Positions 5,921 to 58,205 of a DNA stretch of 64,000 nt are shown here, in pieces. The notes under the pieces are model-generated. The model did no database searches. It was not told the origin of the DNA and saw nothing but the letters and a program-made list of their open reading frames with translations. Source of the stretch: Malacoraja senta (taxonomy: Eukaryota); assembly GCA_038087875.1 (NCBI GenBank), contig CM075988.1, positions 6,636,001-6,700,000 on the forward strand, read 5' to 3'. The position numbers and the translations under genes were made by a program. The number at the start of each line of letters is the position of its first letter. Position 1 is the first letter of the stretch.

Positions 5921-6304
5921 AACCAATGATCCCAGGTTTACACATCTGGTAACAAAAAGAATAGTTCATTTAAAATGTGTAGGAAGGAACTGCGGATAGA
6001 CACAAAGCGCTGGAGTAACTCAGCGCGTCAGGTGGCATCTCTGGAGAAAAAGGACTGGTGACGTTTCTGGCAGGGACTGGACTGCAGATGCTGGTTTATA
6101 CCGAAGATAGACTCAAAACGCTGAATGCAGACCAGTCTGAAGAAGGTTTCCGATCTGAAACGTCACCTATTCCTTTTCTCCAGAGATACTGCCTGACCCT
6201 CTGAGTTATTCTAACATTTTGTGTCTAATTTCATTTAAAATGCAGTTTTATAATTCATTCATGAGCAACAACCCAATTTTCTTTTCCCTCTATGCTCTTG
6301 GGTC

Positions 6305-6605
6305 ACGGCATGGTGGCGCAGCGGTAGGGTTGTTGCCTTACAGCGCCAGGGACCCGGGTTCGATCCTGACTGCAAATACAGTCTGTACAGAGTTTGGACG
6401 TTCTCCCTGTGACCGTGTGGGTTTTCTCCGGGTGCTCCAGTTTCCTCCCACACTCCAAAGGCGTACATGCTCGTAGGTTAATTGGCTTCATTAAAATTGT
6501 AATTTGTGCCTTGTGTGTGTGGGATAGTGTTAGTGTGCGGTAATCGCTGGTCAGTGGGGGCTTGGTGGGCCGAAGGGCCTGATTCCGCGCTGTATCACTA
6601 AACTA
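6305..6605 (+). mobile_element. HE1/V-SINE-like tRNA-derived SINE (representative; about 20 copies in the window, e.g. 1113, 10727, 11380, 16790, 24758, 39864, 45030, 51376, 58636 on plus; 10020, 13020, 14330, 22845 on minus)
   Basis: A box TGGCGCAGCGG, B box GGTTCGATCC, conserved core gtttgtacgttctccc...gggtgctccggtttcctcccaca, LINE-derived tail gggccgaagggcctg...ctaaact. Confidence 0.85.
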
Positions 6606-6674
6606 TTCCAGAGGGTCACTGCAACCTTTGCTACTATCTCCCTGGTGGCCTCACACTGTGTTTCAGTCACAAGT

Positions 6675-6702
6675 CTGAAGAAGGGTTTCGGCCCGAAACG
6701 TT
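6675..6702 (+). ncRNA. Minimal type I hammerhead ribozyme motif (PLE-derived)
   Basis: CUGAAGA-A-GGGU-UUCG-GCCC-GAAA-CGUU. Confidence 0.65.
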
Positions 6703-8139
6703 GCCTATCTCCTTCGCTCCATAGATGCTGCTGCACCCACTGAGTTTCTCCAGCATTTTTGTGTACCTTCGATTTTCCAGCATCTGCAGTTCCTTCTTTA
6801 ACACTGTTTCTTAGTGTCCAGCTCGTTCTTAGTCTCCCAATTTAGTTTATTGTCACGTGTACCGAGGTACAGTGAAAAGCTTTTGTTGCATGCTAACCAG
6901 TCAGCAGAATTGAGCCATTTACAATGTATAGACACATGTTAAGGGAATAAAGTTTGGTGCAAGGAAAAGCCAGAAAAGTCCAATCAAGGATAGTCCAAGG
7001 GTCACCAATTAATTCAGCACTGATCTCTGGCTGTGGTAGGAAGATTGATGATTCTTGGGCAAATGTTCCAACTATGGAACCCCTGGCTGCTCTGCTTGCT
7101 GGGGACAATATGCTCATCTGCAAAACCCTTGACGCAGTTGAAAATAAAATCAGCTCACAACACCAGCTACTGTCTGTGAGTGGAGCAGTCACATAGAGGC
7201 TGAGAGCCACGTCACCCACTGCTAGCATCATCGTTCATGCGTAAACATCTCCAAGCACTTAGCCTTCAAGGAAAAATAATGCTCATGTTAGGTTTGTGTT
7301 TAAACTCTGTTAGGTCTCTTTCTGTTTACAATGCCCTATGTCAGAGGGTGGTGAATCTGTTGAAATCTTTGCCACAGAAGGCCCTGGAGGCCAAGTCAGT
7401 GGATATATTTAAGGCACAGAAAGATAGATTCTTGATTTGCACGGATGTCAGAGGGAGAAGGCAGGAGAATGGGGTTAGGAGGGAGAGGTAGATCAGCCAT
7501 GATTGAATGGCAGAATAGACTTGATGGGACGAATGGCCTAATTCTACTCCTATCATTTATGACCTTATGACTAAACTAAACTAAAGCTCAGAGCCACCCA
7601 GGCTAAGGCGCTTCACTTAAATGACACCTCATCCATGAACTTACAAGGTTGTTCCCTCTGTAGATTCAGTGGGTGCTAACTACAAACTGCACCACAGTTA
7701 CAAGTCCAGGCTACTCAAATAGCACCTTCCAAGACACCAGCCATTCGGAAGAATAAGAGTACATCGGAACACCACCACCTAGATGCTTGCTGATGTGGAA
7801 ACACATCTCCTGTCCTTTGCCGTCCCTGGTCAAGAAACTTATTTCCCAACAGCACGGTCAAAATCCCTTCACCAGGAAGACTGCAGCAGCTCAAGGTAAT
7901 TGCTCACCACAACCTTCCCACAAAGGCAGTTACAGACAGGCAGAGTACATTGCGATAGAACTTTATTTAACCCAGGAGGGAAATTGATCTGCCAACAGTC
8001 ATAAAAACACAAAATACATCAAACATGAAATTATGAAATATCACATCCCAAAATATGAATTAAAAAAAGAGAATTAAATTAGGAGTTAAATTCTCACAAC
8101 ATATGAGAGCTCTTACAGTCATTGGCAAGATTAGGCCTG

Positions 8140-11961: not shown

Positions 11962-12054
11962 TCACACGCTCGTGTACAGCAGGCCCCGTAGGTGGGTCAC
12001 GTGGCACTTTGTTATTCTCACCAGCGTCACAAACTGCTGCCTCAGGCTGGTCAT
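11962..12054 (-). CDS. Mini-plakin terminal coding exon (MTSLRQQFVTLVRITKCHVTHLRGLLYTSV*)
   Basis: Acceptor tgtttctggtgcag|; compare plectin YVDLRTHYSELTTLTSQYIKFISETL. The stop falls where the rod domain would begin. Confidence 0.75.
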   Translation of the reverse strand: MTSLRQQFVTLVRITKCHVTHLRGLLYTSV

Positions 12055-15000
12055 CTGCACCAGAAACACAACACACATCAGCAACAGGCAGAGAGACCTC
12101 CCGCATGGAGGGATATGGATCACGTACTGGCAGAGGAGATCGGGTATACTTGGTATCAGGCTCGGCATAGACATTGTGGGCAGAAGGGCCTGCTCCTGTG
12201 CTCTACTGTTCTATGGTCTGTGGTTTTTTAACAGAGCAGCTCCACCAGGATGGAAGTTCAGTGATCGTGAGACTGGTCAAGGAGGGTAACCTCATCCTCG
12301 ATGACAGGAGGGAATGAGATCCACACCAGACTTCCTTCAGGAGAATATCCTGGGACCACTCGCACTACTTCCATCCTTACCTCACACTTTGGGTCTTTCC
12401 ATCTCTGGCCTTGATCACACCATCTGCCAATAAAGCCACCCACATCTGTGCCCACCTATCACTTGCCAGGCTATGTCCTGCCCTCACCTCTCTTCGAGCT
12501 TCCTGACTACAGGTGCTGTCTGTGCGGAGTTTGTACGTTCTCCCTGCGACGCCGTGGGTTTTAACCGGGTGCTCCGGTTTCCTCCCACACTCCAAAGACG
12601 TACAGGTTTGTAGGTTAATTGGCTTCAGTAAAAATTGTAAATTGTAAATTGTCCCTAGTGTGCAGGAATGTGTTTGTGTATGGAGATCGCTGGTCGGTGT
12701 AGACCGGGTGGGCTGAAGGGCTGTTTCCACTCTGTATCTCTAAAACTAAATCTGAAAACGAAAAACTTTCTAATCCCCCCACCCCCAACACAATCAGTCT
12801 GGAGAAGGGTCCCGATCTGAATCGTCACCTGTCTCCAGAGATGCTGCCTGACCCGCTGAGTTACTCCAGCACTTGGTGCTTTTCTATGGCAGAAAGCCTA
12901 TTGATTCTGCCTGGTCCAAGACACCAAAATGATCCACCAGCTGACAGCTCCCCAGCTCCCCAGCTCCCCAGCGCCACAGGGTAAGAGCGTCCGATCCATT
13001 ACGATTAGTTTACTTTAGTTTAGTTTAGACATACAGCATGGTAACTGGTCCTTCAGCCCACTGAGTCCATGCCGACCCATACACTAGCACTATCCTACAC
13101 ACTAGGGACCAAAGCCAATTAACCTGCAAACCTGTACGTCTTTGTAGTGTGAGAGGAAACCGAAGCACCCGGGGAAAACCCAAGTGGTCACGGGGAGGAC
13201 GTACAGACTCCATACAGGTGGTAAGGATGGAACCTGGGTGTCTGGCGCTGTAAGGCAGCAACTCTACTGCTGCGCCACCATGTCATGCGGTAAAGAACAG
13301 CAGAGATAAGTTATTTGAACTTTTACAAAGCAACTTGAACAGCGCACGAAACAAACCACGTCTAGAGGGGGAAGCAGAGGGCACAACGGCTGCTACCTCT
13401 CCTTGCAGGGTGTAGGTCAGCTCCGGTTTCACCGCAGAGGCAGGCTGGTGCTGTGTCATGCTCTGTTTAAACGAGGCAGCCTGGAGCTTGATTTGCTGGA
13501 AGAAAAGAAACAGAATGTGAACCAGTGGACAGAGGCACCCTGGACAGGAGATGCACTGGGTGAGTGTTTTACACAGAGTGCTGGCGGCCTGGGACACTCT
13601 GCCAGGGATGGTGGTGGAGGCAGGTATAGGTCAGAAGGTCAGAAGTGATAGGTGCAGAATTAGGCCATTCGGCCCATCAAGTCTACTCTGCTATTCAATC
13701 ATGGCTGACCCATCTCTCCCTCCTAACCCCATTCTCCTGTCTTCTCCCCATAACCCCTGACACCCGTACTAATCAAGAATGGTGCAGTTAGAATACGGAA
13801 GATAGAAAAGTACAGCATAGGAACAGGCCCTTCAGCCATCAATGTCTGTGATGTATATCCCCCATATCCATGTGCCATTGAAGGGCTGTTTTGGATGGGA
13901 TCATGGATATGCATGACATGGATGACCCGTTCACACTAGTTCCATGTTATCCCACCTTCTCATCCACTCCCTGTACGCTCAAGGCCATTTACAGAGACTG
14001 ATTAAGAGATTTCCAGCTCTTTGTTTGAAACGATGACATATTTTGAACAAATTATGAACATGAACTTTTGCATGGGTGCCATCCTGCTTATTATTTTCCT
14101 CCATTAGATGCCTAATTCACTTGTTGCCAGAAGAGGTAATGAGGTGATATGTAAGAGAGAGGGTCGACACAAAATGCTGGGGTAACTCAGCGGGACAGGC
14201 AGCATCTTTGGAGAAAAGGAATGGGTGACGTTTCGGGTCGAGACCCTTCGTCTTCAGAAATAAGAGAGAGAGAGTCATCTCGGGACCAGCCACGGTCAGC
14301 TTCAGACTCAAGCTGCTGAGTTTTTAGTTTTTAGTTTTAGTTTTAGAGATACAGCGTGGAAACAGGCCCTTCGACCCACTGTCCATGCTGACCAGTGATC
14401 ACCCATTCTATCCTGCACACTTGGGACAATTTACAGAGGCCAATTAACCTACAAACCGGCACATCTTTGGAGTGTGGGAGGAAACCGGAGCACCCGGAAA
14501 AAAATCATGGCGTCACAGGGAGAACGTGCAAACTCCGTACAGACAGCAGGGCGCTCCATACAACATTTGAGGGCTTGTCAGCCTGAAGAAGAGTTTTGAC
14601 ACGAAACGTCACCTATTCCTTTTCCCTTTGCTGCCTGACCCGCTGAGTTACTCCAGCACTTTGTGTCTGTCTTCACCCCAACGTCATGTTCAGTTCAACA
14701 CTGTTTTAACCTGGTGCATTCTGCTGTAGTGGTTTCTGCAATATCCAAACATCTTCACTGGCAAGAGAAGCTGAGAGCCTCCTTCACTTCCTCCACACCT
14801 CCACTTCTTACCTCAAAGGCACGGACACATTCACTCATCGCCCTCCAACATTTCCCCAGCTGGAGGGCAGAGAAAAAGTGATTCAGAATGACTTTAACCT
14901 GAATAAACAATTTTGCATTATTATTCCAGGAATCAAACAGATTTACCGTGAATGGAAGCGGCCTTCTACCCAACTCGTCCATGTCAAACGCAATTCCTTT

Positions 15001-18000
15001 CTGAACTAGTCCCGTTGCCCACGCCTAGTCCAGATTCATCTCAGCATATCCTATACATATACCCGCCAAAATGCCCTTTGAATGATGTTGTTACACCTGC
15101 CTCAACCAGTTTGTGTGGCAGCTTGTTCCAGACACCCACCACCCTCTTACAGAGAGCGGTTGATAATCTCAAACTCACTGCCAGAGGTGGTGGTGGAATC
15201 AGATACAATCACTGCCTTTAAGAGATATTTAGGAGAGGGACATAAATCGGTAAGGCATAGAAAGATGCAGACCTAATGTAGGCAAAGGCGATTAATGTAG
15301 ATGGTCAAAAAAGATGATGTGGACTTGGTAGAACTTTATCTGTGCTGCCGACTCTGGCTCCTATGACTCCGTGACCAAGTGTACTGTGGCCACATTTGCT
15401 GATGATACAAATAAAGATGAATCAGCAAGTTGTGAGGGAACACAGAGGGACATGGGTAGGTCACAGGAGTGAACTAGAGGTTGGCAGATGCCTTATAATG
15501 TGAGGTGGTCAACCTTGGAAGATTCAAATGTTAATTAAGGAATCTGGGCATCCCAGTGCAAGAAATACTAGCAATTAGCATGGGGATACATCAGGTGGGA
15601 ATGGAACATTGGTCTTTACTGCATGAAGTATGGTCTGTAAAAATACGGCAGTTTTGATGTATGCTCACAGGAGGCTGGTGATTCTACATCGTTTTGGTCT
15701 CGATATTTATGGAAGGGACAGTACTTGCAATGAAGGCTGTGCAGAGAAGGTTCACGAGGCTAATCCCTGGAATGTTGAGCATGGAAGAATAAGATGTGAC
15801 TACGCCATTCATAGAGGAATTGACAGAGGTTAGACTGAGAGCATGGTTCCCCTGGTGGAGGTGTCTAGAATTAGGCTGCAATGTTTCACCGACTTCAGGC
15901 TGAGATGAGGAGGAGTTTCTTCTTTTGGTGGGTCATGAGGTTTTGGAATTCTCTCTCCTGGACAGTTGGGGAAATGGAGTCATATTCAAGATAGAGAATG
16001 GTGGGCAATTACACTTCAATTGAGGCAAAGGGTGTGGAGAGCGAACAAGAATGTGGTGTTGGAGGCAAGACTGGATCAGACATGACCTTACTGAATGGAT
16101 CAGCAGACTCAAGGGGCTGACTGGCCTAATCCTGCTCCCATTGCCTATATCTATATTCATATGAACCCAGTGGACTGTATGGAGAAAATATGGTACATGC
16201 AAGTGGTACAGGCATGGCACCACATGGTAAATGCCAGCTGATACTGAGAGAAGGCCTCTATCTCTATATCCTGATAAAGGGTCTTGACCCAAAACGTCAC
16301 CTATCCCTTTCTCCAGAGGTGCTGCCTGACTCGCTGAGTTACTCCAGCATTTTGTGTCTATCTTTGCTCTAAATCCATATATTCGTCATCTCGTGTGTTA
16401 GGGGCTATTTATTTCCACCAGGTTTATCGGCAATAGCCGTGATGGATCTTGAACAATGTGCAGGTGGTTCCTCACCAACTGCAGGCAGCTGCTGACGAGA
16501 AACTCTCTCACCTTTTGGTGCCCGAGGTTCTTGATGATCACCAGCTTGCTCTCACATTGTACGGTGTGAATCCATTCCTGGAACCTGTGGGTCTGCATTA
16601 CCCAGGCGCGGAGTGGGCAGTAACAGAGCTGGTATGATTCAAGGCAGCTTGCAAAGCCGGTCAATAACTTTATCCTGAAATCCAGAATATTGTTAGAATT
16701 AATGTGCTTGGGGGCTCGGTGTAGGTGGGGTGGGGGGGGGGTGGGTGGGCAGTAAGCAGGGGATGACAGTCAGGGCAGGTTTGGGACAGTACGGTGGGCA
16801 GTGGTTGAGTTGCTGCCTTACAGCGCCAGGGACCCGGGTTCAATCCTGACTGTGGGTGCTGTCTGTACGGAGTTTGTACGTTCTTCCCATGACCTGCGTG
16901 GGTTTTCTCCGAGTGCTCCGGTTTCCTCCCACACTCCAAAGACATACAGGTTTGTAGGCTAATTGGCTTTGGTAAATCATCCCTAGAGTGTGGGATGGAA
17001 CTAGTGGACGGGTGATCATTGGTCGGCGTGGACTTGATGGGCCGAAGGGCCTGTTTCCACGTTGTGCCTCCAAAACTAAAGGTCACGTGGTGGTGGGGGT
17101 TGGGGGGGGGGGAACAGACAGGGTGACACGGAGCAGTCACGGGACAATCGGGACAGGGTCAGAAGGGGAAATAGAAAAGGCACAGAGGAATTGCCTCTTT
17201 GTCCCTCCCATTTTATGGAGGCAAATACTTCAGTGAGGCCCCCAAAGGCCACATTACTGCCACTCCCTGTGTCTCACTTGGAGTTGTCAAATATAGATGC
17301 AAGCAACTGCAGATGCTGATTAATACACAAAAGAACACAAAGTGCTGGAGTAACACAGATGTGAACTATTTGAGAGTAGCTGGACACAAGGCCAAAAGGT
17401 AGCGAGTTCTAGCTGTTGATGATGAATAAAGTTATCAAAACAGTGCCCTGTAATTATTATGAGGATATTTATAGGCAACGACGTATGCTGCATCTACAGG
17501 CGAATATTCTCTTGCGTAAGTTTGGTGCGTGTACAGATGTGGTGAAGATGTCGCTGTTTAGAGCATACTGCACACCACTCTACACTGTGCACCTGTGGTC
17601 GAACTACGGAAAGACAAGTCTGCAGAGACTAAAGGTGGCCTATAATGATGCCATGAGAACACTGTTAAGGAAACCTAGATGGTGTAGTTCTAGTAACATG
17701 TTTGTGGCTGCAGGAGTCAATACTTTAGAAGCTATCCTAAGAAATCATATGTATAAATTCATTTGCAGGATAAATGACTCTAAAAATGTAATTATCGTGG
17801 CCTTGTCAAACATAAGGTTTAGCACTAACGCTACGAATCCCAGTTGTGGAGACACTGGTATCGTTGTCTCGTTGTAGAACACTGATCTTTCTTTTTTATT
17901 CTGGATTTTAAATCATGTATTGTGTTTTTTTAATATATAATTTATGATGCTTTTATAAGTGATGTACTAGGATTTTATATGTATTTTATGGTGTTTTTAT

Positions 18001-21000
18001 ATGCAATGTATTTTTATGTAATGTTGCCCCTTGTCTGGACCTTGAGTCTGAAATAAAGTTTATTATTATTATTATTATTATTATTAGTCCCTGATTGCCC
18101 CAGAAGTGATGAACCATTGAAAGTCAATTTGTGGGTCTGGAGGTACACAAGGAGACCATATTGGACACAAAGTGTTGGTGTTATATCTTGCAATACTGCT
18201 GTATCCATTATCCTTTATCTGAAGAAGGGTTTCGGCCCGAAACGTTGCCTATTTCCTTCGCTCCATAGATGCTGCTGCACCCGCTGAGTTTCTCCAGCAT
18301 TTTTGTGTACCATCCTTTATCTATTCACTGTGGACAGTTTGATTGTAACCATGCATAGTCTTTTCTCTGACTGGATGAACGCAAACAAAAGCTTTTCACT
18401 GTGCCTTGGTACATGTGGCAATAATAAACTAAACTAATATCCCCTTCTCTGAAGAACATGAATAGGTGAGTTTTTGCATTGGGCCCCTTCTTCAGTCTGA
18501 GAAGGATCCCGACCCGAAACATCACCCATCCATGTTCTCCAGAGATGCTGCCTGACCTGCTGAGTTACTCCAGCACTCTGTGAATCATCACCTCTCCATG
18601 TTCTGCAGAGATGCTGCCTGACCTGCTGAGTTACTCCAGCACTCTGTGAAACATCACCTCTCCATGTTCTCCAGGGATGCTGCCTGTCCCACTGAGTTAC
18701 TCCAGCACTCTGTGAAACATCACCTCTCCATGTTCTCCAGGGATGCTGCCTGTCCCACTGAGTTACTCCAGCACTCTGTGAAACATCACCTCTCCATGTT
18801 CTCCAGAGATGCTGCCTGACCTGCTGAGTTACTGCAGCACGTTTTGTCTCTTTTTTTGATAAACCAGCATGCATAGTTTCTTGTGCAACAAAAGCTTTTC
18901 ACTGTACCTCGGTACACGTGACAATTAACTGAACTGAACTTGCATCTCAGGAGATCAGATAACATATTTTGAGGCCATCTGACAATGAATAAGTGCAGCA
19001 AAAAGTGAATTCGATCTGGAACAAAGACGTTTTTCCTCTATTTGGTTCGGGTTATCTGACCTGAGAAGACGTGTTGGAATCCTCACCTTTCCTCGGTGTA
19101 TGTTTTCATGGTGTGAAGCTTGCTGTGCAGGAGTTGAATCCTCTGCCTGTCTCTGGATGTGACCATGTTGTCCAACCTCATGCTCTTCTGCTGACTGTCA
19201 CCCCCTGTAGGGTGGGGAAGACTCTCGGTGCCTTTGTTGAATGCGCAGGTTTGGCCAGTCCCCTGGTCTCTCCCTGCTGCACCACACTGGCCCACAAGTC
19301 TCCACAAGCTGTCATCTACCTGGTTGATCTCTTGATGCAGATTCTGTAAAGAGAGGTGGTGACAAAGGGTTACCGCTGCTGCACCTTCACCACCTGGTCA
19401 GCAGGCGCTAGACAGACTAAATGATACTCCACGCCAATGATGACATAACGAAACACTCACCGCTCGATTCCATCAGGTCTTGGTTGCTCAGTTTATTATC
19501 TCCATTCACCCGCTCCAAATACTTGCCTACACTCAACTAATAACAATTCTTAGATAGGCACAAAATGCTGGAGTAACTCCGCAGTCATGCAGCATCTCTG
19601 GAGAAAAGGAATAGATGACGTTTCGGGTCGGGACCCTTCATCAGACTGAGAGCAATAAAACCTCATCTTGTAAAGCAGTTGACTATCACTACCACCCACA
19701 TAGTCTTTCGGGAGGGAGAATTCAGGATGTCAACTATTCTTTGCCTGAAGAAATGCTTCCCTATTTTGTCCTCTCATATATCCCCCTCTTTTCAATCAAC
19801 CCTCCCCCCCCCCGCTATCACCACCTCCCCCCCACACCAGCCCACTGTTCCCAAGTCTCTTTCCTTTCCCCCAACTTGGTTCCACCTTCATTGTTGGTGA
19901 TCATTCAAAGTCCAGTATGGTTGTCCTCCTGGTGGGTTCAGGTGGACACCTATGCGTGACATCTTTTAACGTGGGGAGCTTAGTTTAATTCAGTTTAGTT
20001 TATTGTCATGTGTAATGACGTACATTGAAACAGCTTTTGTTGCGTGCCAACCAGTTTGCGGAAAGACAATACATGCTTACAATTGTGCCGTCCACAGTGT
20101 TAAATCACAGTGTTAAGTCCACAGCCGTCCACAGTGTACAGATACATGATAAAGGGAATATAGAATGTGTGCAAGATCCATTCCAGTAGAGTCTGATTGA
20201 AGATAGTCTGAGGGTCTCCAATGAGGTAGATAGTAGGTCAGGACTGCTCTCTAGTTGTTGGTTGGATGGTTCTATTGCCTGCTAGCAGCTGGGAAGAAAC
20301 TGTCCCTGAATCTGGAGGTGTGCGGTTTCACACCTCTATACCTCTTGCCTAAGGGGAGAAGAGGGAGTGACCGGGGTGAGACTGGTCCTTGATTAAGCTG
20401 CTGGCCTTGCCGAGGCAGCCTGAAGTGCAGATGGAGTCAACGGAAGGGAAGAACCTGCCTATCACCCACAAACAGAAGATGCACACAAAATGCTGGCGTA
20501 ACTCAGCGGGACAGGCAGCATCTCTGGAGAGGAGTGGGTGACGTTTCGGGTCGACACCATTCTCCAGACCCTTCTTCTCGACACAAAACGTCACCCATTC
20601 CTTCTCTCCAGAGATGCTGCCTGTCCCACTTAAGTTACTCCAGCACTTTGTGTCTACCTTCAGGGTAAACCAGCTTCTACAGTTCCTTCCCACACACTGG
20701 GCCCCTATCCCCACCGTTCCCATCTGCCCACCATCCTTCCCTTATCTGAATCCACTCATCAGCTTCTCCTATCAGATTCCACAATCTGCAGCCCTTTGTT
20801 GAATCCTCTTATCCCCTCCCAGCCTCTGTCGCCATCTCCTTTCCTCCGTCCCCCACCTCTCTCCATCTGCCAGCTAACCTCTCCTCCCCTGGATGCACCT
20901 ATCCACCCCCACCCCTCCCCCTCATCTCTTTATACTGGCCATCTCTGGTCTAAACTCCCTGCCCTGATGCAGGGTCTCAACCAGAAATGCCCACCATCCC

Positions 21001-24000
21001 TTTGCCTCCATAGATGCCGTCTGACCTACTGTTCCTCCAGCAACTTGCTTTAGGATTCTAAATCTCAAGCTTCCCTGTTTTGCCGTGTCCGTTTTCAGGC
21101 TACCAGGATAAAGTGAGGATACGTGAATCCCGCTACTAACCCTTAATTTCTTCCTGTACATGGGGTGGTGACATTGTTGACTGTCGGATGTGCACAAGTT
21201 CGATTCCAGCAGCATCACCTTCTCCACAATCAAGGACAGTGCTCGGTAAGACTTGCTCCTTGCATCAGAGTAGCTATAAAACAATTAGAATCAGCAAAAC
21301 AACTTCCCAAAACCTTCAGCGTCGCCACAGAATTCCCATTCACGCCTGCGCTTTTTAAGTAGGGGAACCCAATGAAAGTGATCCACACTTTTAAGATGTA
21401 GGAGATGTCAAGGAGTTAGGTTTGAAACCATTGGCCTGGATTATCATAGAGTCATAGAGCACAAAACAGGCCCATCGGCCCAACTTGCCCATGCCATCCA
21501 CATGACCCATCTACGCTAGAACGTGCAAACTCCATACACACAGCACCCGTAGTCAGGATCGAACCCGGGTCTCTGGCACTGTAAGGCAGCAACTCTACTG
21601 CTGCGCCACTGTAGGCAATGAAGCACTTTTGAAGTAGAATACATGGCCAATTTGCTGAGGCATGGGAAGTCTCACAAACCACAATTACAATTAAAACACA
21701 AAGTACTTGTGCTATAACTCCATGATAAATGCTCAACTAAGAAAACTAAGCCCTAAACCAAAGTATTATCTAATTTAACACAACAACTTATAATAAATAA
21801 CTCAATTTGCGGAAAAAAATAAAAAACATCTCCCTACATATTAATTCTCTTTAAAATAAAACTAATCCTGTAGATGCAAGTATATCATTGGGGTTATCAA
21901 GTGAGCACCTCCCTTCATTGGTGTTTCATTGAGCTAGGCCCACGACACCTTGGGCAGCAACAGTTGGTTTTGGCGTCCCAGAACAAACCCCCCCTCAATA
22001 CCTGGTCTCACCACCTATGCTACCAGTATCTACTAAATAAAGGAAGCTGCAGCCAATTAGCTTACTCTAACAGATGATAACCACATCTGTCATCCTAGCC
22101 CATCATGAAGCTTGTAACACCACAAATATCACCCTTGCATGAGACTTACGCAGACTACAATTACAAAGAAATACACAAACTGCATGTCATACGATTCCTT
22201 TCTGCCCCCAACTGACACTATTTCTTCTCCACCAAATCCACCTACTGCCTTGCTCTGCTGCCTCTGGCATTTGCTTTACAGCCTGACGCAAACTCTGTCC
22301 GCAAATTCCTAGCTCTCCAAATAGCCACGTGGTTGATCTCGCTAAGAAACCTCGACAACCCACCTCTACCGGACGTAGTCTTGCTCTCCATCCCCGCTGC
22401 TCAACTTCTGCTGCCATCTCTACATATCTATGCCTTTTCCATTCATAAGCCTCATCCTTTAAGTTCTCCCAATCACAATCAATTCTATAAAATACACTAT
22501 CCACTGACTAACTGACCTTAACACTGAGGAAGGGTCTTGACCCGAAACGTCGCCTATTCCTTCACTCCATAGATGCTGCCTCACCCGCTGAGTTTCTTCA
22601 GCATTTTTGTCTACCTTCGATTTTTCCAGCATCTGCAGTTCTTTCTTAAACATAACAATATATCAGGCCTCAAACTTCAGTTTCAGGAATAGTGATGGAG
22701 AAATGATCGTTTAGTGAGATTTCAGATGTATTTCAGCTGCTCTTCTCCAATTTAGGGTTGATGGGGTTTTACACATCCAACCCTGTTTTAATATTTCATC
22801 CCAACAATTATATCATCGGCCAGTGCCGCACCCTCTGGGAAGCTTTTGGTTTTAGAGATACAGCGCAGAAACAGGCCCTTTAGCCCACCGAGTCCATGCC
22901 GACCAGCGATCACCACGCAAACACAAGGGACAATTTACAATTTTACCGGTCAATTAATCTACCAACCTGCATGTCTTTGGAGTGTGGGAGGAAACTGGAG
23001 CACCCGGGGCAAACCCACGAGGTTACTGGGCGAGCGTACAAACTCCATACAGACAGCACCTGTAGTCAGGATCGAACCCGGGTCTCTGGCACTGTAAGGC
23101 AGCAACTCTACCGCTGCGCCACCGTGCCACTCTAACTTTACAAAGAGAAGATGAGAAAGATTGAAGGGGCCTGAGGGCGTGTCACCTCCAAGATTGCTGA
23201 GGAACGTGAGCTGAAAGAGCAAAGTGAGACTTGAGAAAGAATATTGACTGGGAGTAGACAAACTGGAACTTTGGCAGCGTACACCTCCTGGGTGGATGGT
23301 TTAGAAATAAGGTATAATCCACCTCGAAGTCCATTGGGATGGGGGATGGGGACGTTTATAGACGGGTAAATAAAAGTGGCAATGAGTGCGCTGTGCACAG
23401 TTATAGTGGAATGAGAGGGACACCTGGTAGAGCCACTGTCTTGCAGCACCAAAGACCTGTGTTCACTCCTGACCTCTGGTGCTGGCTTGGTGGAGTTTGC
23501 ATGTTTTCCATGTGATCGTGTGTGTTTCCTCCAGGCGCTCCGGTTTTGTCCCACATCCCAAAGATGTGCAGTTCAATAAGCTAGGTGGCCATTACAAATT
23601 ACTTGGAGTGTTTAAGGTGAGTGATAGAACCAGTGCGGCATTGATGGGAATGTGGGGAGAATAAGAAAATTGGATTCATGTGGGATTGATGGCCAGCATG
23701 GACCCGAAGGGCTGAAAGGCCTGTTTCTGTGCTATATCCCTCTATGATTCCATGATACATGGACTTGATGAGCCAAGATGCCTATTTCTGTGTTGCACTT
23801 CAGGAATAATCCTGGGTTCAAACCTGCTTAAGATTGATCTATTTAAGATTGAGATGAATGGATTTTTAGATACCAGGGATATTAATGTAGTTTGCGCAAG
23901 TGAGATCAGCCAGGTTCTTCCGAAAAGCAGAGTAGGCTCAGAAAGCTGACAGGCCTCTTATTTATGTGTAGAAAGGAACTGCAGATGCTGGTATACACCA

Positions 24001-27000
24001 AAGATAGACATAAAGTGCTGGAGTAATTCAGCAGGTCAGGCAGCATCTCTACAGACAAAGGATGGGTGAGGTTGTGGGCTTCTTCAGACTATCTATCAGA
24101 GTCACTTATCTACTCTTATTTATGTTTACATTACAGAGGGGGGCATCACATTCTGGCATTTGCTGCTATCAGCGGATGTCCACACTTACACATACGTGGA
24201 GTGCTCACTGACCCACTCCCGCTAACTGTAACATCCCACACAATACTAACCTGCATTAGTTTCAAGTTGTGACTTGCTATATTTATCAATGATTCTCTTA
24301 CAAACCATGGCCACAGTTTCAATACTCACAGGCTCACTTCAGACGTCACAGCAATGATCCCAGGTTTACACGTCTGGTAACAAAAGAATAGTTCATTTAA
24401 AATGTGTAAGAAGGAACTGTGGATAGACACAAAGCGCTGGAGTAACTCAGCGCGTCAGGCAGCATCTCTGGAGAAAAAGGACTGGTGACGATTTGGGCAG
24501 GGACTGCAGATGCTGGTTTATACAGAAGATAGACTCAAAACGCTGAACGCAGATCAGTCTGAAGAAGGGTTCCGACCTGAAATGTCACCTATTCCTTTTC
24601 TCAAGAGATACTGCCTGACCCGCTGATTTACTCCAACATTTTGTGTCTAATTGTAATATCATTTAAAATGGCATTTTATCATTCATCATTCATCGAGAAT
24701 CATTCATCATTCATGACCAACAACCCAATTTTCTTTTCCCTCTATGCTCTTGGGTCAGGGCATGGTGGTGCAGCGGGAGGGTTGATGCCTTACAGAGCCA
24801 GAGACCCAGGTTCGATCCTGACTACGAGTGCTGTCTGTACAGAGTTTGTACGTTCTCCCTGTGACCGCGTGGGTTTTCTCCGGGTGCTCCAGTTTCCTCC
24901 CACACTCCAAAGACGTACAAGTTTGTAGGTTAACCGCTTCAGTAAAATTGTAATTTGTCCCCAAGGTGTGTAGGATAGTGTTAGTGTGTGGTGATCGTTG
25001 GTCAGTGGGGGCTCGGTGGGGTCAGTCTTTATCATCCTGGGCAAGTGTTCCAACTATGGAACCCCTGGCTGCTCTGCTTGCTGGGGACAATATGCTCATC
25101 TGCAAAACCCTTGACCCAGTTGAAAATAAAATCAGCTCACAGCACCAGCTACTGTCTGTGAGAGGAGCAGTCACATAGAGGCTGAGAGCCACGTCACCCA
25201 CTGCTAGCATCACCGTTCATGCGTAAACATCTCCAAGCACTTACCCTTCAAAGAAAAATAATGCTCATGTTAGGTTTGTGTTTAAACTCTGTTAGGTCTC
25301 TTTCCGTTTACAATGCCCTATGTCAGAGGGTGGTGAATCTGTGGAATTATTTGCCACAGAAGGCTGTAGAGGCAAACTCAGTGGATATTTTTAAGGCAGA
25401 GATAGATAGATTCTTGATTCGTACGGATGTCAGAGGTTATGGGAAGAAGGCAGGAGAATGGGGTTAGGAGGGAGAGATAGATCAGCCATGATTGAACGGC
25501 GGAGTGGACTTCACTGGGCCGAATGGCCTAAATCTGCTCCTATTCCTTATGACCTTATGACCTATGTTCCCACCTCTCTCGGATTCCACATCAGAGCAGT
25601 GAATTCCTCTCTGTTGTTGGAATATTGACTACAAATTTTGTAAAATTTACTGTATTGCAAACTTTTTAACAATTTATAATAGCAGTATTCATAAGCAAAC
25701 TTGTTACTCATAACATCATATGGCGGGAGAGGCAGGAGGGTGAGGGGTGATCTTATAGATGTGTACAAAATCATGAGTGGAATAGATCGGGTAGTCGCAC
25801 AGAGTCTTTTGACCAGGGTAAGGGAATCGAGAACCAGAGGATATATGTTTAAGGTGAGGGGGAAAAGATTTAATGGGAACCTGAGGGATAAAGTTTTTAC
25901 ACAAAGGATGGTGGATATATGGAACGAGCTGCTGGAGGAGGTAGTTGTGGTAGGTTCTATCGCCACATTTAAGGAACATTTGAACAGGTGCATGGACAGG
26001 GCAGGTTTAGAAGAATATGGGCAGGTGGGAATAGTGTAGATGGGACATGATGGTCAGCATGGGCAAGTTGGGCTGAAAGGCCTGTTTCCATGCTGTATGA
26101 TTCTATGATTAAAATCAGCCCAGGATATTTGGGCTTTTTTATTTATAGAGAATACCTATTTATGGAAACGTTATAGGAAACTTATGTAGAGAAATACAGA
26201 TTTGGCTGCAGCCTATACATAACACTACAAAGCAAACTCCCTCCAACTCAAAACAGGCTGCGTCAATCCTTTACAATTTTGGATTAATGACAGGATGAGA
26301 CGAGCTGAAGATGCTGGGCTGGCTGGCAATTGAAGCTGATCTCTTTCACTAACTTCCTGCTGTTCTCCACTAGTTTGGCCTCCATGCAACTAACGTGGGT
26401 GACTCTCCGCTGATCTCTGCAGCGTCCCAACACCTTCTTCTGGATAACTCGAAATGGCAGCGTGCCAACCGAGCTGGGAAACTTAACTCCGGGGAATTCA
26501 TTTAATTTATGGTGCACAGGAGGATGAGGGGTCACCTTATTGAGGTGCATAAAATCAAGAGAGGAATCGATCGGGTAAATGCACAGACTTTTTCCCCAGA
26601 ATAGGGGAATCAAGAACTAGAGGGCATACTGTAGGTTTACGATAGACAAAAAAAGCTGGAGAAACTCAGCGGGTGAGGCAGCATCTATGGTGCGAAGGAA
26701 TGGGCGAGACCGCTGAGACCTCGACCCGAAACGTCGCCTGTTCCTTCGCTCCATAGATGCTGCCTCATCCGCTGAGTTTCTCCAGCTTTTTTGTCTATCT
26801 TTGATTTTTCCAGCATCTGCAGTTCTTTCTTAAACATACTGTAGGTTTAAAGTGAGGGGGGGGAAGATTTAATAGGCATCTGAGGGGTAACGTTTTTTAC
26901 ACAAAGGGCGGTGGGTATGGAACAAGCAGCCAGAGGAGGTAGTTGAGGAATATACTATCATAAGTACATCTAAAAAGCATTGGACAAGTACATGGATAGG

Positions 27001-27392
27001 ATAGGTTTACAGGGATATGGGCCAAGTGTGGGCAGGTGGGGCTAGTGTAGATGAGCACATTGGTTGGTATGGGCCAGTTGGGCCGAAGGGCCTGTTTCCA
27101 TGCTGTATGACTCTATGACTCTCGATAACACTGTCCACAGCCATCAGGTTGTGGATTAGAAGGGGAGACTAGCTGGAAACAACATCTGATCAATGTTGTT
27201 TATCTTTTAACAGAGAAATTAACTTTTCCTTCGGCAAAGACCTACCTTGAAGAGCCAACGGCACAAACCAAAACTCTCGAGGACATCGAAGTAGGTGAGG
27301 AGGCTGATGACTGAGAGCACACTGAAGATGATGGCAGACCCACAGAGGTCAGCTACAGTTCCAAATAGACCCCGGAACACCAGCAGGTCCAT
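11962..27392 (-). CDS. Putative membrane-anchored mini-plakin (N-terminal TM segment + plakin-domain SR8-SR9-like repeats), about 350-365 aa, 8-9 coding exons
   Basis: Six consecutive GT-AG exons (21141-21273, 19087-19343, 16512-16674, 14812-14898, 13397-13495, 11962-12054) splice into one open frame that aligns by eye with the end of the plectin/dystonin plakin domain. Phase-compatible upstream exons at 26.4 kb and 27.3 kb supply a Kozak ATG and a hydrophobic helix. Confidence 0.75.
13397..13495 (-). CDS. Mini-plakin exon (QIKLQAASFKQSMTQHQPASAVKPELTYTLQGE)
   Basis: 99 nt, strong acceptor tttcttttcttccag|, donor GAG|gtagca; compare plectin DYELQLVTYKAQL...VIQE. Confidence 0.75.
14812..14898 (-). 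CDS. Mini-plakin exon (VKVILNHFFSALQLGKCWRAMSECVRAFE)
   Basis: 87 nt, phase 0/0, donor GAG|gtaaga; compare plectin ...KVEECQRFAKQYINAIK. An in-frame alternative acceptor lies at 14859. Confidence 0.7.
15380..16140 (+). mobile_element. Old degenerate CR1-type LINE fragment
   Basis: FADDT motif (tttgctgatgatacaaa) and a decayed 3' region. Confidence 0.65.
16512..16674 (-). CDS. Mini-plakin exon (IKLLTGFASCLESYQLCYCPLRAWVMQTHRFQEWIHTVQCESKLVIIKNLGHQK)
   Basis: 163 nt, tttcag|...AAG|gtgaga. Ungapped 54-aa match to plectin QRELEQLGRQLRYYRESADPLGAWLQDARRRQEQIQ...; the L..Y.....PL.AW.......QE.I pattern includes the spectrin-repeat Trp. Confidence 0.85.
17450..18086 (+). mobile_element. LINE 3' fragment (RT C-terminus) with AATAAA and (TTA)n tail
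   Basis: LFRAYCTPLY...LWSNY...LQRLKVAYNDAMR; the clade is not determined. Confidence 0.75.
18219..18246 (+). ncRNA. Minimal hammerhead ribozyme motif
   Basis: Identical to the 6675 core; the insert is flanked by the direct repeat ATCCTTTATCT (18210-18220, 18312-18322). Confidence 0.65.
18519..18840 (+). repeat. Tandem repeat, about 5 x 66 bp, derived from the PLE terminal repeat
   Basis: Unit acatcacctctccatgttctccag(a/g)gatgctgcctg...gagttactccagcactctgtgaa, starting at 18519/18585/18651/18717/18783. Confidence 0.92.
19087..19343 (-). CDS. Mini-plakin exon (NLHQEINQVDDSLWRL...RDRQRIQLLHSKLHTMKTYTEER)
   Basis: 257 nt, ctctctttacag|...AG|gtgagg. The end aligns with plectin RWRERVAQLLERWQAVLAQTDVR, including the split Arg codon. 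Confidence 0.8.
19617..19644 (-). ncRNA. Minimal hammerhead ribozyme motif
   Basis: CUGAUGA-A-GGGU-CCCG-ACCC-GAAA-CGUC, in the sense orientation of the mini-plakin intron. Confidence 0.65.
21141..21273 (-). CDS. Mini-plakin exon (YSDARSKSYRALSLIVEKVMLLESNLCTSDSQQCHHPMYRKKLR)
   Basis: 133 nt, ttttatag|...AGG|gttagt, phase 2 to 0, like the plectin LKTISLVIRG...KASLK exon (recalled). Confidence 0.7.
22187..22480 (-). mobile_element. RLE-type (HERO/NeSL-like) LINE 3' fragment
   Basis: EAYEWKRHRY...GWRARLRPVEVGCRGF restriction-like endonuclease motif. Confidence 0.8.
22524..22551 (+). ncRNA. Minimal hammerhead ribozyme motif
   Basis: CUGAGGA-A-GGGU-CUUG-ACCC-GAAA-CGUC. Confidence 0.6.
22845..23129 (-). 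mobile_element. HE1/V-SINE-like SINE, well preserved
   Basis: ggcacggtggcgcagcggtagagttgctgccttacag...ggttcgatcc head, full body and tail. Confidence 0.85.
23137..23210 (-). CDS. Mini-plakin optional exon candidate (LTFLSNLGGDTPSGPFNLSHLLFV)
   Basis: Strong acceptor ctttgctctttcag|, donor AA|gttaga (phase 0 to 2). It would bridge donor 26395 to acceptor 21273 in frame. Confidence 0.25.
24352..25560 (+). repeat. Dispersed duplication, copy 2
   Basis: See 5924-7570; lacks about 0.45 kb that is present in copy 1. Confidence 0.9.
26354..26439 (-). CDS. Mini-plakin putative exon 2 (KKVLGRCRDQRRVTHVSCMEAKLVENSR)
   Basis: Phase-0 acceptor atccag| matches the previous donor. Donor AA|gttagt (26354, phase 2) joins 21273 in frame. 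Alternative donor CAC|gttagt at 26395 (phase 0). Confidence 0.45.
26640..26834. mobile_element. Short palindromic PLE-terminus insertion with 15-bp TSD, nested in a CR1 fragment
   Basis: Inverted arms; flanked by CATACTGTAGGTTTA (26625-26639, 26835-26849). Confidence 0.8.
27246..27392 (-). CDS. Mini-plakin putative first coding exon (MDLLVFRGLFGTVADLCGSAIIFSVLSVISLLTYFDVLESFGLCRWLFK)
   Basis: Strong Kozak GCCATGG at 27392 (alternative in-frame ATG at 27407). Acceptor cttttctcgtcag| at 27462, donor AAG|gtagg, GC3-rich codons, about 20-aa hydrophobic stretch. Confidence 0.6.
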
Positions 27393-27527
27393 GGCGAGGA
27401 ACAGCATGGGGCAGTCACAAAGAGGCCAGGCGGCCACTCGAGCTGAGAGCGAGGAATTCACTCTGACGAGAAAAGTATACAGTTGAAATCTCTCAGCTAT
27501 CCTTTACTGAACACTCTTATCCCTTGT

Positions 27528-27555: not shown

Positions 27556-28581
27556 ACCTATTCCTTTTCTCCAGAGATGCTGCCTGACCCGCTGAGTTAC
27601 TCCAGCATTTTGTGTCTGCCTTCCCTTTAACTTTAGTTGGGTCTTTCTCTCAACAACACTCTACCTTGCCCTTTCCTCCTCGCTCCTCAGTGTCTCTCTC
27701 TCACACTCTGCAGTTTCCCAGCTCAATTCTCACTCTATCTCTTGCTTCAATGATTGTGTTTCTGCTTCTATTTGTTCTGCCTCTCACCCCACCCTTTCCC
27801 TTGAATTTCGTTTCTCCTCAACTTAAAATTCTTGATCACTGTCTCTGCCCATCAACTCCCCTGCTTCTCTCCACTGGCTTCTCCCTCTCTCTGCCCCCCC
27901 CCCCCCCCCCCCCGGTGCTCCTGGCTTTAATCTCTCTATACCCCTAGGGTTCTCTCCACTGTTTCTCTGACTGCTGCTCTCTATTCCAGCGTTGAACTGT
28001 ACCTGTACAACTCTCAGTTAGGTGATTAAGTTACTTTGCTCCCTCCCTCTCGGGGAGTTTCACTGACGAATCACTCGAACCTTCCCCTTGGCTTCACATC
28101 GATCAGTTACAATCCCACCCTGCCACACATTGAACAGGAGAGCTATTGCTTTATTTCAGTGGCTCATCTTGAAAGACCGGTTATCAAAAATGTGAATGCC
28201 AGAAACAAAGGGTGACAAATTCCCGCCCTCTGAATGCAATGCTCAAATCAGCTGGTCAATGTAAAACTGGCATGAACATAATTCAAACTCCTGATTCATT
28301 GGTAGTTTCTGAAGTTGGTTTACAAAACTTTATTGAAATTGAGATTTGTAAACAGAAGCTGAAAATCCCAAATCCTTCTGTTTATCTACGCCCATATTGC
28401 TTGCACATCCTGTTGTTGGAGTGTACCTTTCTCCCTCGTTACTGTTAGGCTCCCCAAAACACTCCCTCGTTCCGCGTTGCAATCACCCTATTAGTCAGAC
28501 TCCGATTCTGCTGATAACATTCCAGAAAATACAAAAGTCCGAGGTGGGGTGGAACATCTTATCTCTCTTCGTGTATCCTAA

Positions 28582-29222
28582 AGAGCCTGTCCCACTTGGC
28601 CGTCATTTGCGCCTCATTTACGCGTCATATGTAAAATAGGTAGGTGCGTCGTGACGCATGGGGTGTGTGTGGGTAATGCACGCATTGCGTATGGTGAGGC
28701 GTGGAATCGCATGCAGTAGCGCGCGGTATCAGGCGGCACTCCAGGATTTCGTATTGTAGCGAAATCCACGTGGGCCATCTGCGTGACGTATCACGTACGC
28801 ACGCTGACGCATTGGCTACGCACGTTGTATCGCGTGGTGACGCATGGTTACATCACCGTCCATAAACATGCGCCGCCGCGCACCGCCCATACGCGGTTGG
28901 CCCGCCTTTTACGCGTCATGTAACCTCTAACCTCGTCCACACAGACTTCTTCCTGGGTTTCTTGCTAGCCTTTCTTGTTGTACCCCTGCCTGGCTGATCT
29001 GTAAGTATGAGGGCTGCTGCTAACAGATGTCTCTGTTGTTGCTGTAGCAATAAAATCTGTAGTTCTTCCATGATGGAGAATAGGGAAGCTGGGTATTCTA
29101 ATGACATCACGCGCACCAGACGGCTGTGCTGACGCATGATGATGCATGATTTGCGTGCGACGACCTATTTTACATATGACGTGTAAATGAGGCGCAAATG
29201 ACGGCCAAGTGGGACATGCCCT
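28582..29222. mobile_element. PIF/Harbinger-type MITE with about 60-bp TIRs
   Basis: AGAGCCTGTCCCACTTGGCCGTCATTTGCGCCTCATTTA... and its inverted copy; TAA TSD; CpG-rich interior. Confidence 0.85.

Positions 29223-36485: not shown

Positions 36486-58205
<21,720 letters not shown>

Follow-up and report, generated by a model that had tools for sequence, protein, structure and literature searches.

A plakin-derived SR8-SR9 gene with a predicted N-terminal membrane anchor in the skate Malacoraja senta and other jawed vertebrates

By the usual count, the plakin family comprises seven to nine genes for giant cytolinkers. Its plakin domain has six to nine spectrin repeats, with an SH3 domain in SR5. 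EVPLL consists of the envoplakin N-terminus, and the nesprins are anchored by a C-terminal KASH domain. In the sections of a vertebrate plakin gene survey drawn on here, at most nine members are counted, EPPK1 is dated to early gnathostomes and MACF1CTL is reported lost in placental mammals (PMC8782857). Two plakin isoforms carry an N-terminal membrane segment, according to the excerpts cited: dystonin-a2 (BPAG1a2), whose transmembrane (TM) segment targets perinuclear and endoplasmic reticulum (ER) membranes (PMC3352950, PMC3279385), and plectin 1b, in which an alternative first exon supplies an N-terminal signal anchor of hydropathy 1.49 and the rest of the protein is cytosolic (PMC2426950). 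Here we describe a gene, called mini-plakin below, that joins a hydrophobic N-terminal exon to the plakin spectrin repeats SR8 and SR9. It lies on the minus strand of a 64,000-nucleotide stretch of the Malacoraja senta genome (GenBank GCA_038087875.1, contig CM075988.1, positions 6,636,001 to 6,700,000; G000:C12:6636001-6700000 in our own numbering, G000 being this genome). This whole stretch is termed the window, and positions are counted from its first nucleotide. The sections of the survey drawn on here make no mention of such a gene.

Mini-plakin shares with the SR8-SR9 region of plectin (5J1I), dystonin/MACF1 and desmoplakin a homologous sequence, the two-repeat fold, the residues W223, R199 and L203, and four intron positions. 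Unlike those proteins, it has just two repeats, with no SH3, actin-binding domain, rod, plakin repeat or GAR; identity to them is about 17-18%, and it adds a His/Cys quartet and the N-terminal hydrophobic exon. Dystonin-a2 likewise bears an N-terminal TM segment on a plakin-family chain, but in the excerpts cited it is one isoform of a giant spectraplakin, whose ends bind actin and microtubules, whereas mini-plakin is a separate gene of 345 residues; an initial annotation of the window, made from its letters, had already named this isoform as a TM-anchored protein of giant size. Plectin 1b is alike in its N-terminal anchor and differs, as its source describes it in part, as a full-length mitochondrial cytolinker with a less hydrophobic anchor (1.49 versus 2.07 here). 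Both anchors are, on these partial accounts, alternative first exons of giant proteins, whereas that of mini-plakin belongs to a separate locus between CHEK1 and a CDON/BOC-family gene. EPPK1, MACF1CTL and EVPLL resemble it as stand-alone genes derived from part of a plakin gene, but they keep other parts (plakin repeats; spectrin/EF/GAS2), and none is described with a TM segment in the sections of the survey used here (PMC8782857). The nesprins (short isoforms, nesprin-3/4) are similar as membrane-anchored spectrin-repeat adaptors, and a nesprin-2 fragment ranks second in the fold comparison (Z 15.4); nevertheless, they gave no sequence match in PDB searches, and their anchor is C-terminal whereas that of mini-plakin is N-terminal.

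The gene comprises eight coding exons (Table 1) spread across 15.4 kb of this genome, open to a stop at 11962 and yielding 345 residues, or 332 with a shorter exon 6. The initial annotation had proposed that a protein of about this size combines a hydrophobic exon with plakin SR8-9 exons, and this junction was borne out by the RefSeq models of two skates and by 13 proteins from short contigs. A search with exon 5 led to a 362-residue protein from a skate cluster of 22 proteins, of which the 15 listed are XP_032905545.1, XP_055516830.1 and 13 Logan proteins encoded on contigs of 1400-1602 nt. The anchor exon and SR8-9 occur in one chain in all 15. A whole-protein search (E<=0.01) found a single locus in the genome, with exon 1 matched nowhere else; because the coding exons span 15.4 kb at this one locus, these whole-chain contigs of less than 1.7 kb are best read as spliced RNA of related skates, an RNA nature suggested by their length. 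The corrected model is 91% identical to the related protein P0003 over 345 columns, and the window's proteins are in general about 91% identical to their Amblyraja radiata counterparts. Exon 1 and the SR8-9 exons almost certainly form one gene.

Exon 1 is present much as first annotated, with a CAG acceptor, an AAG/gtaggt donor in phase 0 directly after RWLFK, an ATG at 27392 in a GCCATGG context and the hydrophobic peptide LCGSAIIFSVLSVISLLTYF. A further ATG lies at 27407; the one at 27392 is favoured as the start, since shark proteins begin at this second ATG (MDLL...). The acceptor at 27462 implies that an untranslated exon may lie upstream, and none was found. The 13 Logan proteins begin 18 codons earlier (MTSSLSARV...), where this genome has GTG (27461-27459, minus), just past the acceptor. 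The next exon had been placed at 26439-26354, encoding KKVLGRCRDQRR with a basic patch that would set the topology of a membrane-tethered cytolinker. This candidate does exist in the sequence, with AG/GT ends and in frame into exon 3. However, it is absent from all homologues: the 15 listed skate proteins show the junction LFK/TCKPG, which maps to 24373-24330, and the KKVLGRCRDQRR peptide found no better match than E=3.6 among 54 proteins compared. A simple filter for stop-free, in-phase AG..GT candidates picks out 11 in the interval from exon 1 to the 21.2-kb exon, this one among them, and its donor is weaker (4.6 versus 6.6, by a weight matrix of splice-site frequencies). By these comparisons it is most likely an intronic pseudo-exon outside the protein. 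With a filament-binding domain also lacking, the original model of exon 1 spliced to the 26.4-kb exon is very improbable.

Descent of the repeats from plakin-domain SR8-SR9 is supported by sequence, fold and intron positions. In PDB sequence searches, plectin SR7-9 (5J1I) alone is significant, at E=1.5e-7 with the single sequence and 6.6e-12 with a profile, the next row having E>=0.28 in each case. An AlphaFold model built from 26 sequences (mean pLDDT 78.6) places six rod helices over residues 76-343, that is, two spectrin repeats, preceded by one helical N-terminal region and a disordered linker. Plectin SR7-9 is again the top row for this model in VIA-align (Z 16.9, rmsd 3.6, 231 aligned), followed by nesprin-2 at 15.4 and then the spectrins, and it is the top Foldseek match of a 7-sequence model. 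Since Z values run high among helical bundles, the SR8-9 assignment is carried by the sequence match. ESM Atlas, queried with P0003, gave just sub-0.9 spectrin-type leads.

Furthermore, at four exon boundaries both codon and phase agree with those of plakin exons in this genome; these plakin SR8 exons sit on other contigs, at a locus we take to be plectin-like (L007) and one presumed desmoplakin-like (L008). The start of exon 4 (phase 0) is common to both loci, its end, within a conserved Arg codon in phase 2, is common to L008, and the phase-0 end of exon 5 is matched by a plakin exon boundary. An 84-nt exon of L007 corresponds to the 28 codons that exon 6 has in other skates. Because intron positions are shared, the mini-plakin gene likely arose by genomic duplication of part of a plakin gene rather than by retroduplication.

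The domains that define full plakins are lacking. Pfam detects SH3_10, SR_plectin_7 and related families in full plakins and none of them in mini-plakin family members; no CH pair, plakin repeat domain or GAR was detected in three skate and six bony-vertebrate members. Scans of 14 single-exon frames and of full homologues returned no meaningful family, and for PF27015, the precomputed label that three homologues carry, no family name or paper was found. In skates there is no rod, the stop codon following SR9 helix C directly; salamander, lungfish and Ascaphus models carry a short C-terminal tail after SR9. Chondrichthyan exon 4 (19087-19343) contains an insertion of about 35 residues, of low confidence in the model, between SR8 helices B and C, which bony-vertebrate members lack. 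By family-defining domains the family is not plakin, and it resembles a small anchored spectrin-repeat adaptor. As the protein has no actin-, intermediate-filament- or microtubule-binding domain, a role as cytolinker, one of the two first proposed for it, is unlikely; the other, that of membrane-tethered adaptor, is plausible.

The gene is neither recent nor confined to skates. Close homologues were found in basking shark, sawshark, chimaera and white shark. A 7-sequence chondrichthyan profile run against 1.84 billion representatives gave 26 matches at E<=0.001, namely six of chondrichthyan type, 15 further proteins of 169-430 residues and five plakin-family chains; the ten looked up came from whale shark, lungfish, axolotl, Pleurodeles, reedfish and five frogs. 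P0032 is from Mantella. The range of the family therefore covers skates, four sharks and a sawshark, chimaera, reedfish, lungfish, two salamanders and frogs. In a tree of SR8C-SR9, rooted at the midpoint only and built without 10 rows that were near-duplicates, fragments or different at the C-terminus, 15 family rows are split from five plakin rows by a 100/100 branch, and chondrichthyans stand apart from bony vertebrates. The family is separate from the plakin genes and dates back at least to the origin of the jawed vertebrates. No named teleost or amniote member occurs among the profile matches, and because frogs are already near the detection limit, loss in both groups is offered only as a hypothesis. 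A homologue search with alignment A3 (7997 candidates scored) returned six proteins, missed known members and is uninformative on amniotes and teleosts.

The architecture had been suggested to be new. A literature search by architecture, taxon and LOC identifiers, with subscription journals and supplements outside its scope, gave no published description of the gene, in keeping with that suggestion; on the other hand, this is an ancient separate family and not a recent fusion, and RefSeq holds gene models of it, so the gene is already in databases, where the relatives looked up are named "uncharacterized", "hypothetical" or "MACF1-like".

The anchor proper, LCGSAIIFSVLSVISLLTYF (27347-27288), is a 20-residue uncharged run with a mean Kyte-Doolittle value of 2.07. 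The best 19-residue hydropathy window reaches 2.15; the remainder of the protein scores 1.08 by this measure, and five plakin slices score 0.22-0.71. Residues 21-40 are helical in the AlphaFold model (pLDDT 71-78). After five fragments short at the N-terminus were set aside, 21 sequences were surveyed; in 19 of them an uncharged hydrophobic run, 16-50 residues long, falls within the first 140 residues, while P0024 and P0028, perhaps incomplete models, have none. The frog-type proteins P0043, P0032, P0036 and P0054 show extended N-termini with additional or repeated hydrophobic segments and an uncharged run of up to 50 residues. A chondrichthyan anchor profile beats block-wise shuffles in three of ten sequences (reedfish 1, lungfish 6 and Pleurodeles 0 of 1000). 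Judged in this way, the position and character of the anchor are conserved throughout the family, with sequence homology detectable in some lineages only, and the protein very likely possesses a membrane anchor.

The initial annotation had derived an N-out/C-in orientation from the positive-inside rule. Its argument, based on the basic patch, fails since the KKVLGRCRDQRR exon is absent from every homologue; mild support from charge remains, the region after the run being more positive than that before it in 16 of 19 members, equal in one and reversed in two, with a net charge of +1 over 20 residues in the skate C-terminal flank. The repeats are probably cytosolic. The opposite arrangement, a cleaved signal peptide or an N-in/C-out anchor with luminal or secreted repeats, draws on the weakness of the charge bias, but the N-termini are acidic or neutral, lacking a basic n-region, and charged residues follow the run directly. 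Plakin repeats are, moreover, established as cytosolic modules.

A different question is which membrane would be reached. With the gene and its cytosolic repeats unchanged, the anchor might target the mitochondrial outer membrane, as that of plectin 1b does, or form a hairpin in one leaflet of the ER or a lipid droplet. The hydrophobic run is N-terminal with a mildly more positive C-flank, the long frog runs suit a hairpin, and plectin 1b offers, in the part of its description cited, a precedent in which the N-terminal signal anchor is followed by a positive C-flank (PMC2426950). However, the mean hydropathy of 2.07 exceeds the value given for plectin 1b, a "moderate" 1.49, and the net charge of the chondrichthyan C-flank is near zero. 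Taken together, these alternatives are unlikely.

A further feature of the family lies in SR9. In a 25-sequence alignment, in which many rows are frogs, so that their independence is overstated, the motifs H235-x3-C239 and C331-x3-H335 are near-invariant (H235 in 25/25, C239 in 23/25, C331 in 22/23 and H335 in 22/23), and each of the four residues occurs in none of the five plakin slices. They are the only conserved ones among the 26 His/Cys positions of P0003, except for C269 (14/25), which plakins share. The pattern, two His and two Cys selectively conserved as i,i+4 pairs, spans all five lineages sampled, reedfish lacking C239, and all four residues are intact in this species. H235 and C239 close SR9 helix A, and C331 and H335 lie late in helix C, which runs parallel to it; a helical-wheel estimate puts both pairs on flank positions at similar height, 13-20 A beyond the W223/F322 layer. 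Such an arrangement is compatible with a His2Cys2 zinc site at the distal end of SR9, formed within one chain or between two, and a metal site is somewhat favoured. Luminal repeats would instead suggest a C239-C331 disulfide, in keeping with two of the four conserved residues being Cys and with the Cys-rich nature of the chondrichthyan proteins. The two His are nonetheless as strictly conserved as the two Cys, and this combination of luminal repeats and disulfide is considered improbable. The literature searched yielded no description of a metal site on a spectrin-repeat scaffold.

Taken jointly, the evidence leans towards an ER-route, N-out/C-in membrane adaptor with a metal-capped SR9, encoded by an ancient jawed-vertebrate gene that likely arose from partial genomic duplication of a plakin gene. 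The hydrophobic run would insert via the ER route as an uncleaved signal anchor, making a single-pass protein whose SR8-SR9 would face the cytosol as a short rigid rod and act as a docking adaptor. Partners would be recruited to the membrane, instead of filaments being linked by the protein itself. A zinc site might cap SR9, or clamp two SR9 tips at the point where full plakins continue into a dimerising rod. The dimer clamp is a reasonable guess because plectin SR7-9, in the portion of its structural description cited, is a dimer both in the crystal and in prediction, just before the rod (PMC11203604).

Several observations weigh against this account. The splicing evidence consists of proteins of related skates. 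The anchor call is based on hydropathy, and a hydrophobic or amphipathic character extends through all of residues 1-54. In two of 19 members the charge bias runs the other way, and the net charge of the chondrichthyan C-flank ranges from -1 to +1. Some frog models have runs of 31-50 residues that could form a hairpin rather than a single pass. In the other seven of the ten sequences, including frogs and axolotl, the chondrichthyan anchor profile does not rise above block-wise shuffles, nor does a bony-vertebrate anchor profile on the skate exon (130 and 239 of 1000). In SR9, the helical wheel leaves open the groove that each pair faces.

Exon 6, finally, is altered in this species. It lacks the first nine codons present in all relatives (S/R-V/I-VEEIEEK) and carries unrelated sequence instead (14869-14898, minus). 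Two acceptors keep the frame, at 14898 with 10 unrelated codons or at 14859, 12 codons shorter. The missing codons are absent from the window and were not recovered as a micro-exon in intron 5 (best score 16, no better than background), and their back-translated pattern has 0 exact matches in the genome. The alteration is either a species-specific change or an assembly error. Decay of a gene that is functional in relatives would explain the lost start of exon 6 and the resulting damage to SR9 helix B, along with the duplication of part of intron 1 and half of exon 2 at about 5.9-7.6 kb. Nevertheless, both acceptors preserve a stop-free frame, identity to P0003 is 80-100% in the other exons, the His/Cys quartet is intact and an assembly error is also possible, and decay is accordingly regarded as quite improbable. 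The duplicate itself (5924-7571 versus 24352-25561) consists of two blocks of 86-92% identity downstream of the gene and covers part of intron 1, including the acceptor, and the first half of exon 2. The idea that exon 2 is an exonised repeat was rejected, since it has just two matches in the genome, the exon itself and this local partial copy.

Table 1. Features of the mini-plakin locus, in window positions.
Feature	Position	Strand	Remarks
Exon 1, first coding	27246..27462	minus	ATG 27407 and Kozak ATG 27392; phase-0 donor; matches residues 1-55 of P0003 at 95% identity
Predicted single transmembrane helix LCGSAIIFSVLSVISLLTYF, residues 21-40	27288..27347	minus	Hydropathy; helical in AlphaFold model
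Exon 2 proposed in the initial annotation, KKVLGRCRDQRR	26354..26439	minus	Most likely intronic pseudo-exon
True exon 2, 44 nt, linker TCKPGIIAVTSEVS	24330..24373	minus	Phase 0 to 2; used by 15/15 listed skate-cluster proteins
Exon 3, SR8 helix A and start of helix B	21141..21273	minus	Phase 2 to 0
Exon 4, SR8 helix B, long chondrichthyan-specific loop, helix C	19087..19343	minus	Phase 0 to 2; both boundaries common to plakin genes of this genome
Exon 5, SR9 helix A with W223, H235 (16568-16566) and C239 (16556-16554)	16512..16674	minus	Phase 2 to 0
Exon 6, SR9 helix B	14812..14898	minus	Acceptor 14898 or 14859
Exon 7, end of helix B and B-C loop	13397..13495	minus	Phase 0 to 0
Exon 8, last coding; SR9 helix C, conserved Cys (12006-12004) and His (11994-11992), then stop	11962..12054	minus	

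Other elements lie within or near the gene. Intron 4 contains a tandem array (18516-18840) of 4.9 copies of a 66-nt SINE-derived unit. At 28500-29200, 1 kb upstream from exon 1, is a CpG-rich segment (observed/expected 1.22) whose ends resemble palindromes; it could represent a promoter or else a small mobile element. CHEK1 (36546-56500, minus), an intact-looking multi-exon gene, lies further upstream on that strand and ends about 9 kb before exon 1; its exon at 56.2-56.5 kb matches Chk1 at E=1.3e-35, and its last exon ends near 36.55 kb. Mini-plakin as a 3' extension of CHEK1 was rejected, since CHEK1 has its own stop near 36.55 kb and the homologues are annotated as stand-alone proteins. A CHEK1 intron holds what we presume to be a Tc1/mariner-like transposase remnant (43700-44900), and an integrase/RNase H frame of a retroelement lies upstream of CHEK1 (L020:1639-3276). 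In the other direction, some 25-80 kb past the start of the window, a convergent Ig/FN3 gene occupies the plus strand (L014-L019; G000:C12:6556001-6616000), and its FN3 exon best matches the BOC/CDON family, in a scan of 98 of 706 unmasked frames. Human CHEK1 and CDON presumably flank ACRV1 and the PATE cluster.

A bolder synthesis can be offered tentatively, as a doubtful extension of the above. A gene that derived from a plakin in early jawed vertebrates, and that cartilaginous fish, reedfish, lungfish and amphibians retained while amniotes and teleosts lost it, might encode the first zinc-binding spectrin repeat of the plakin line. Its membrane-anchored SR8-9 would carry a His2Cys2 tip with one of two roles: a dimer clamp in place of the rod, or a docking surface for the SR9 of full-length plakins, which would thereby be tethered to an organelle.

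With this gene, the plakin count gains a minimal, apparently membrane-anchored offshoot that has been kept across the jawed-vertebrate lineages sampled. SR8-SR9 is, as far as the cited portion of the source goes, a part of the plakin domain without an identified protein partner (PMC11203604). Since the offshoot has been retained across these lineages, SR8-SR9 can carry a selected function alone, and mini-plakin, present in axolotl and frogs, provides a small, tractable protein for finding SR8-9 binding partners. The His/Cys quartet, being near-invariant, suggests that a spectrin-repeat scaffold here bears a metal site. If the absence in amniotes and teleosts is true, the gene would also serve as a gene-loss marker in the CHEK1-CDON interval.

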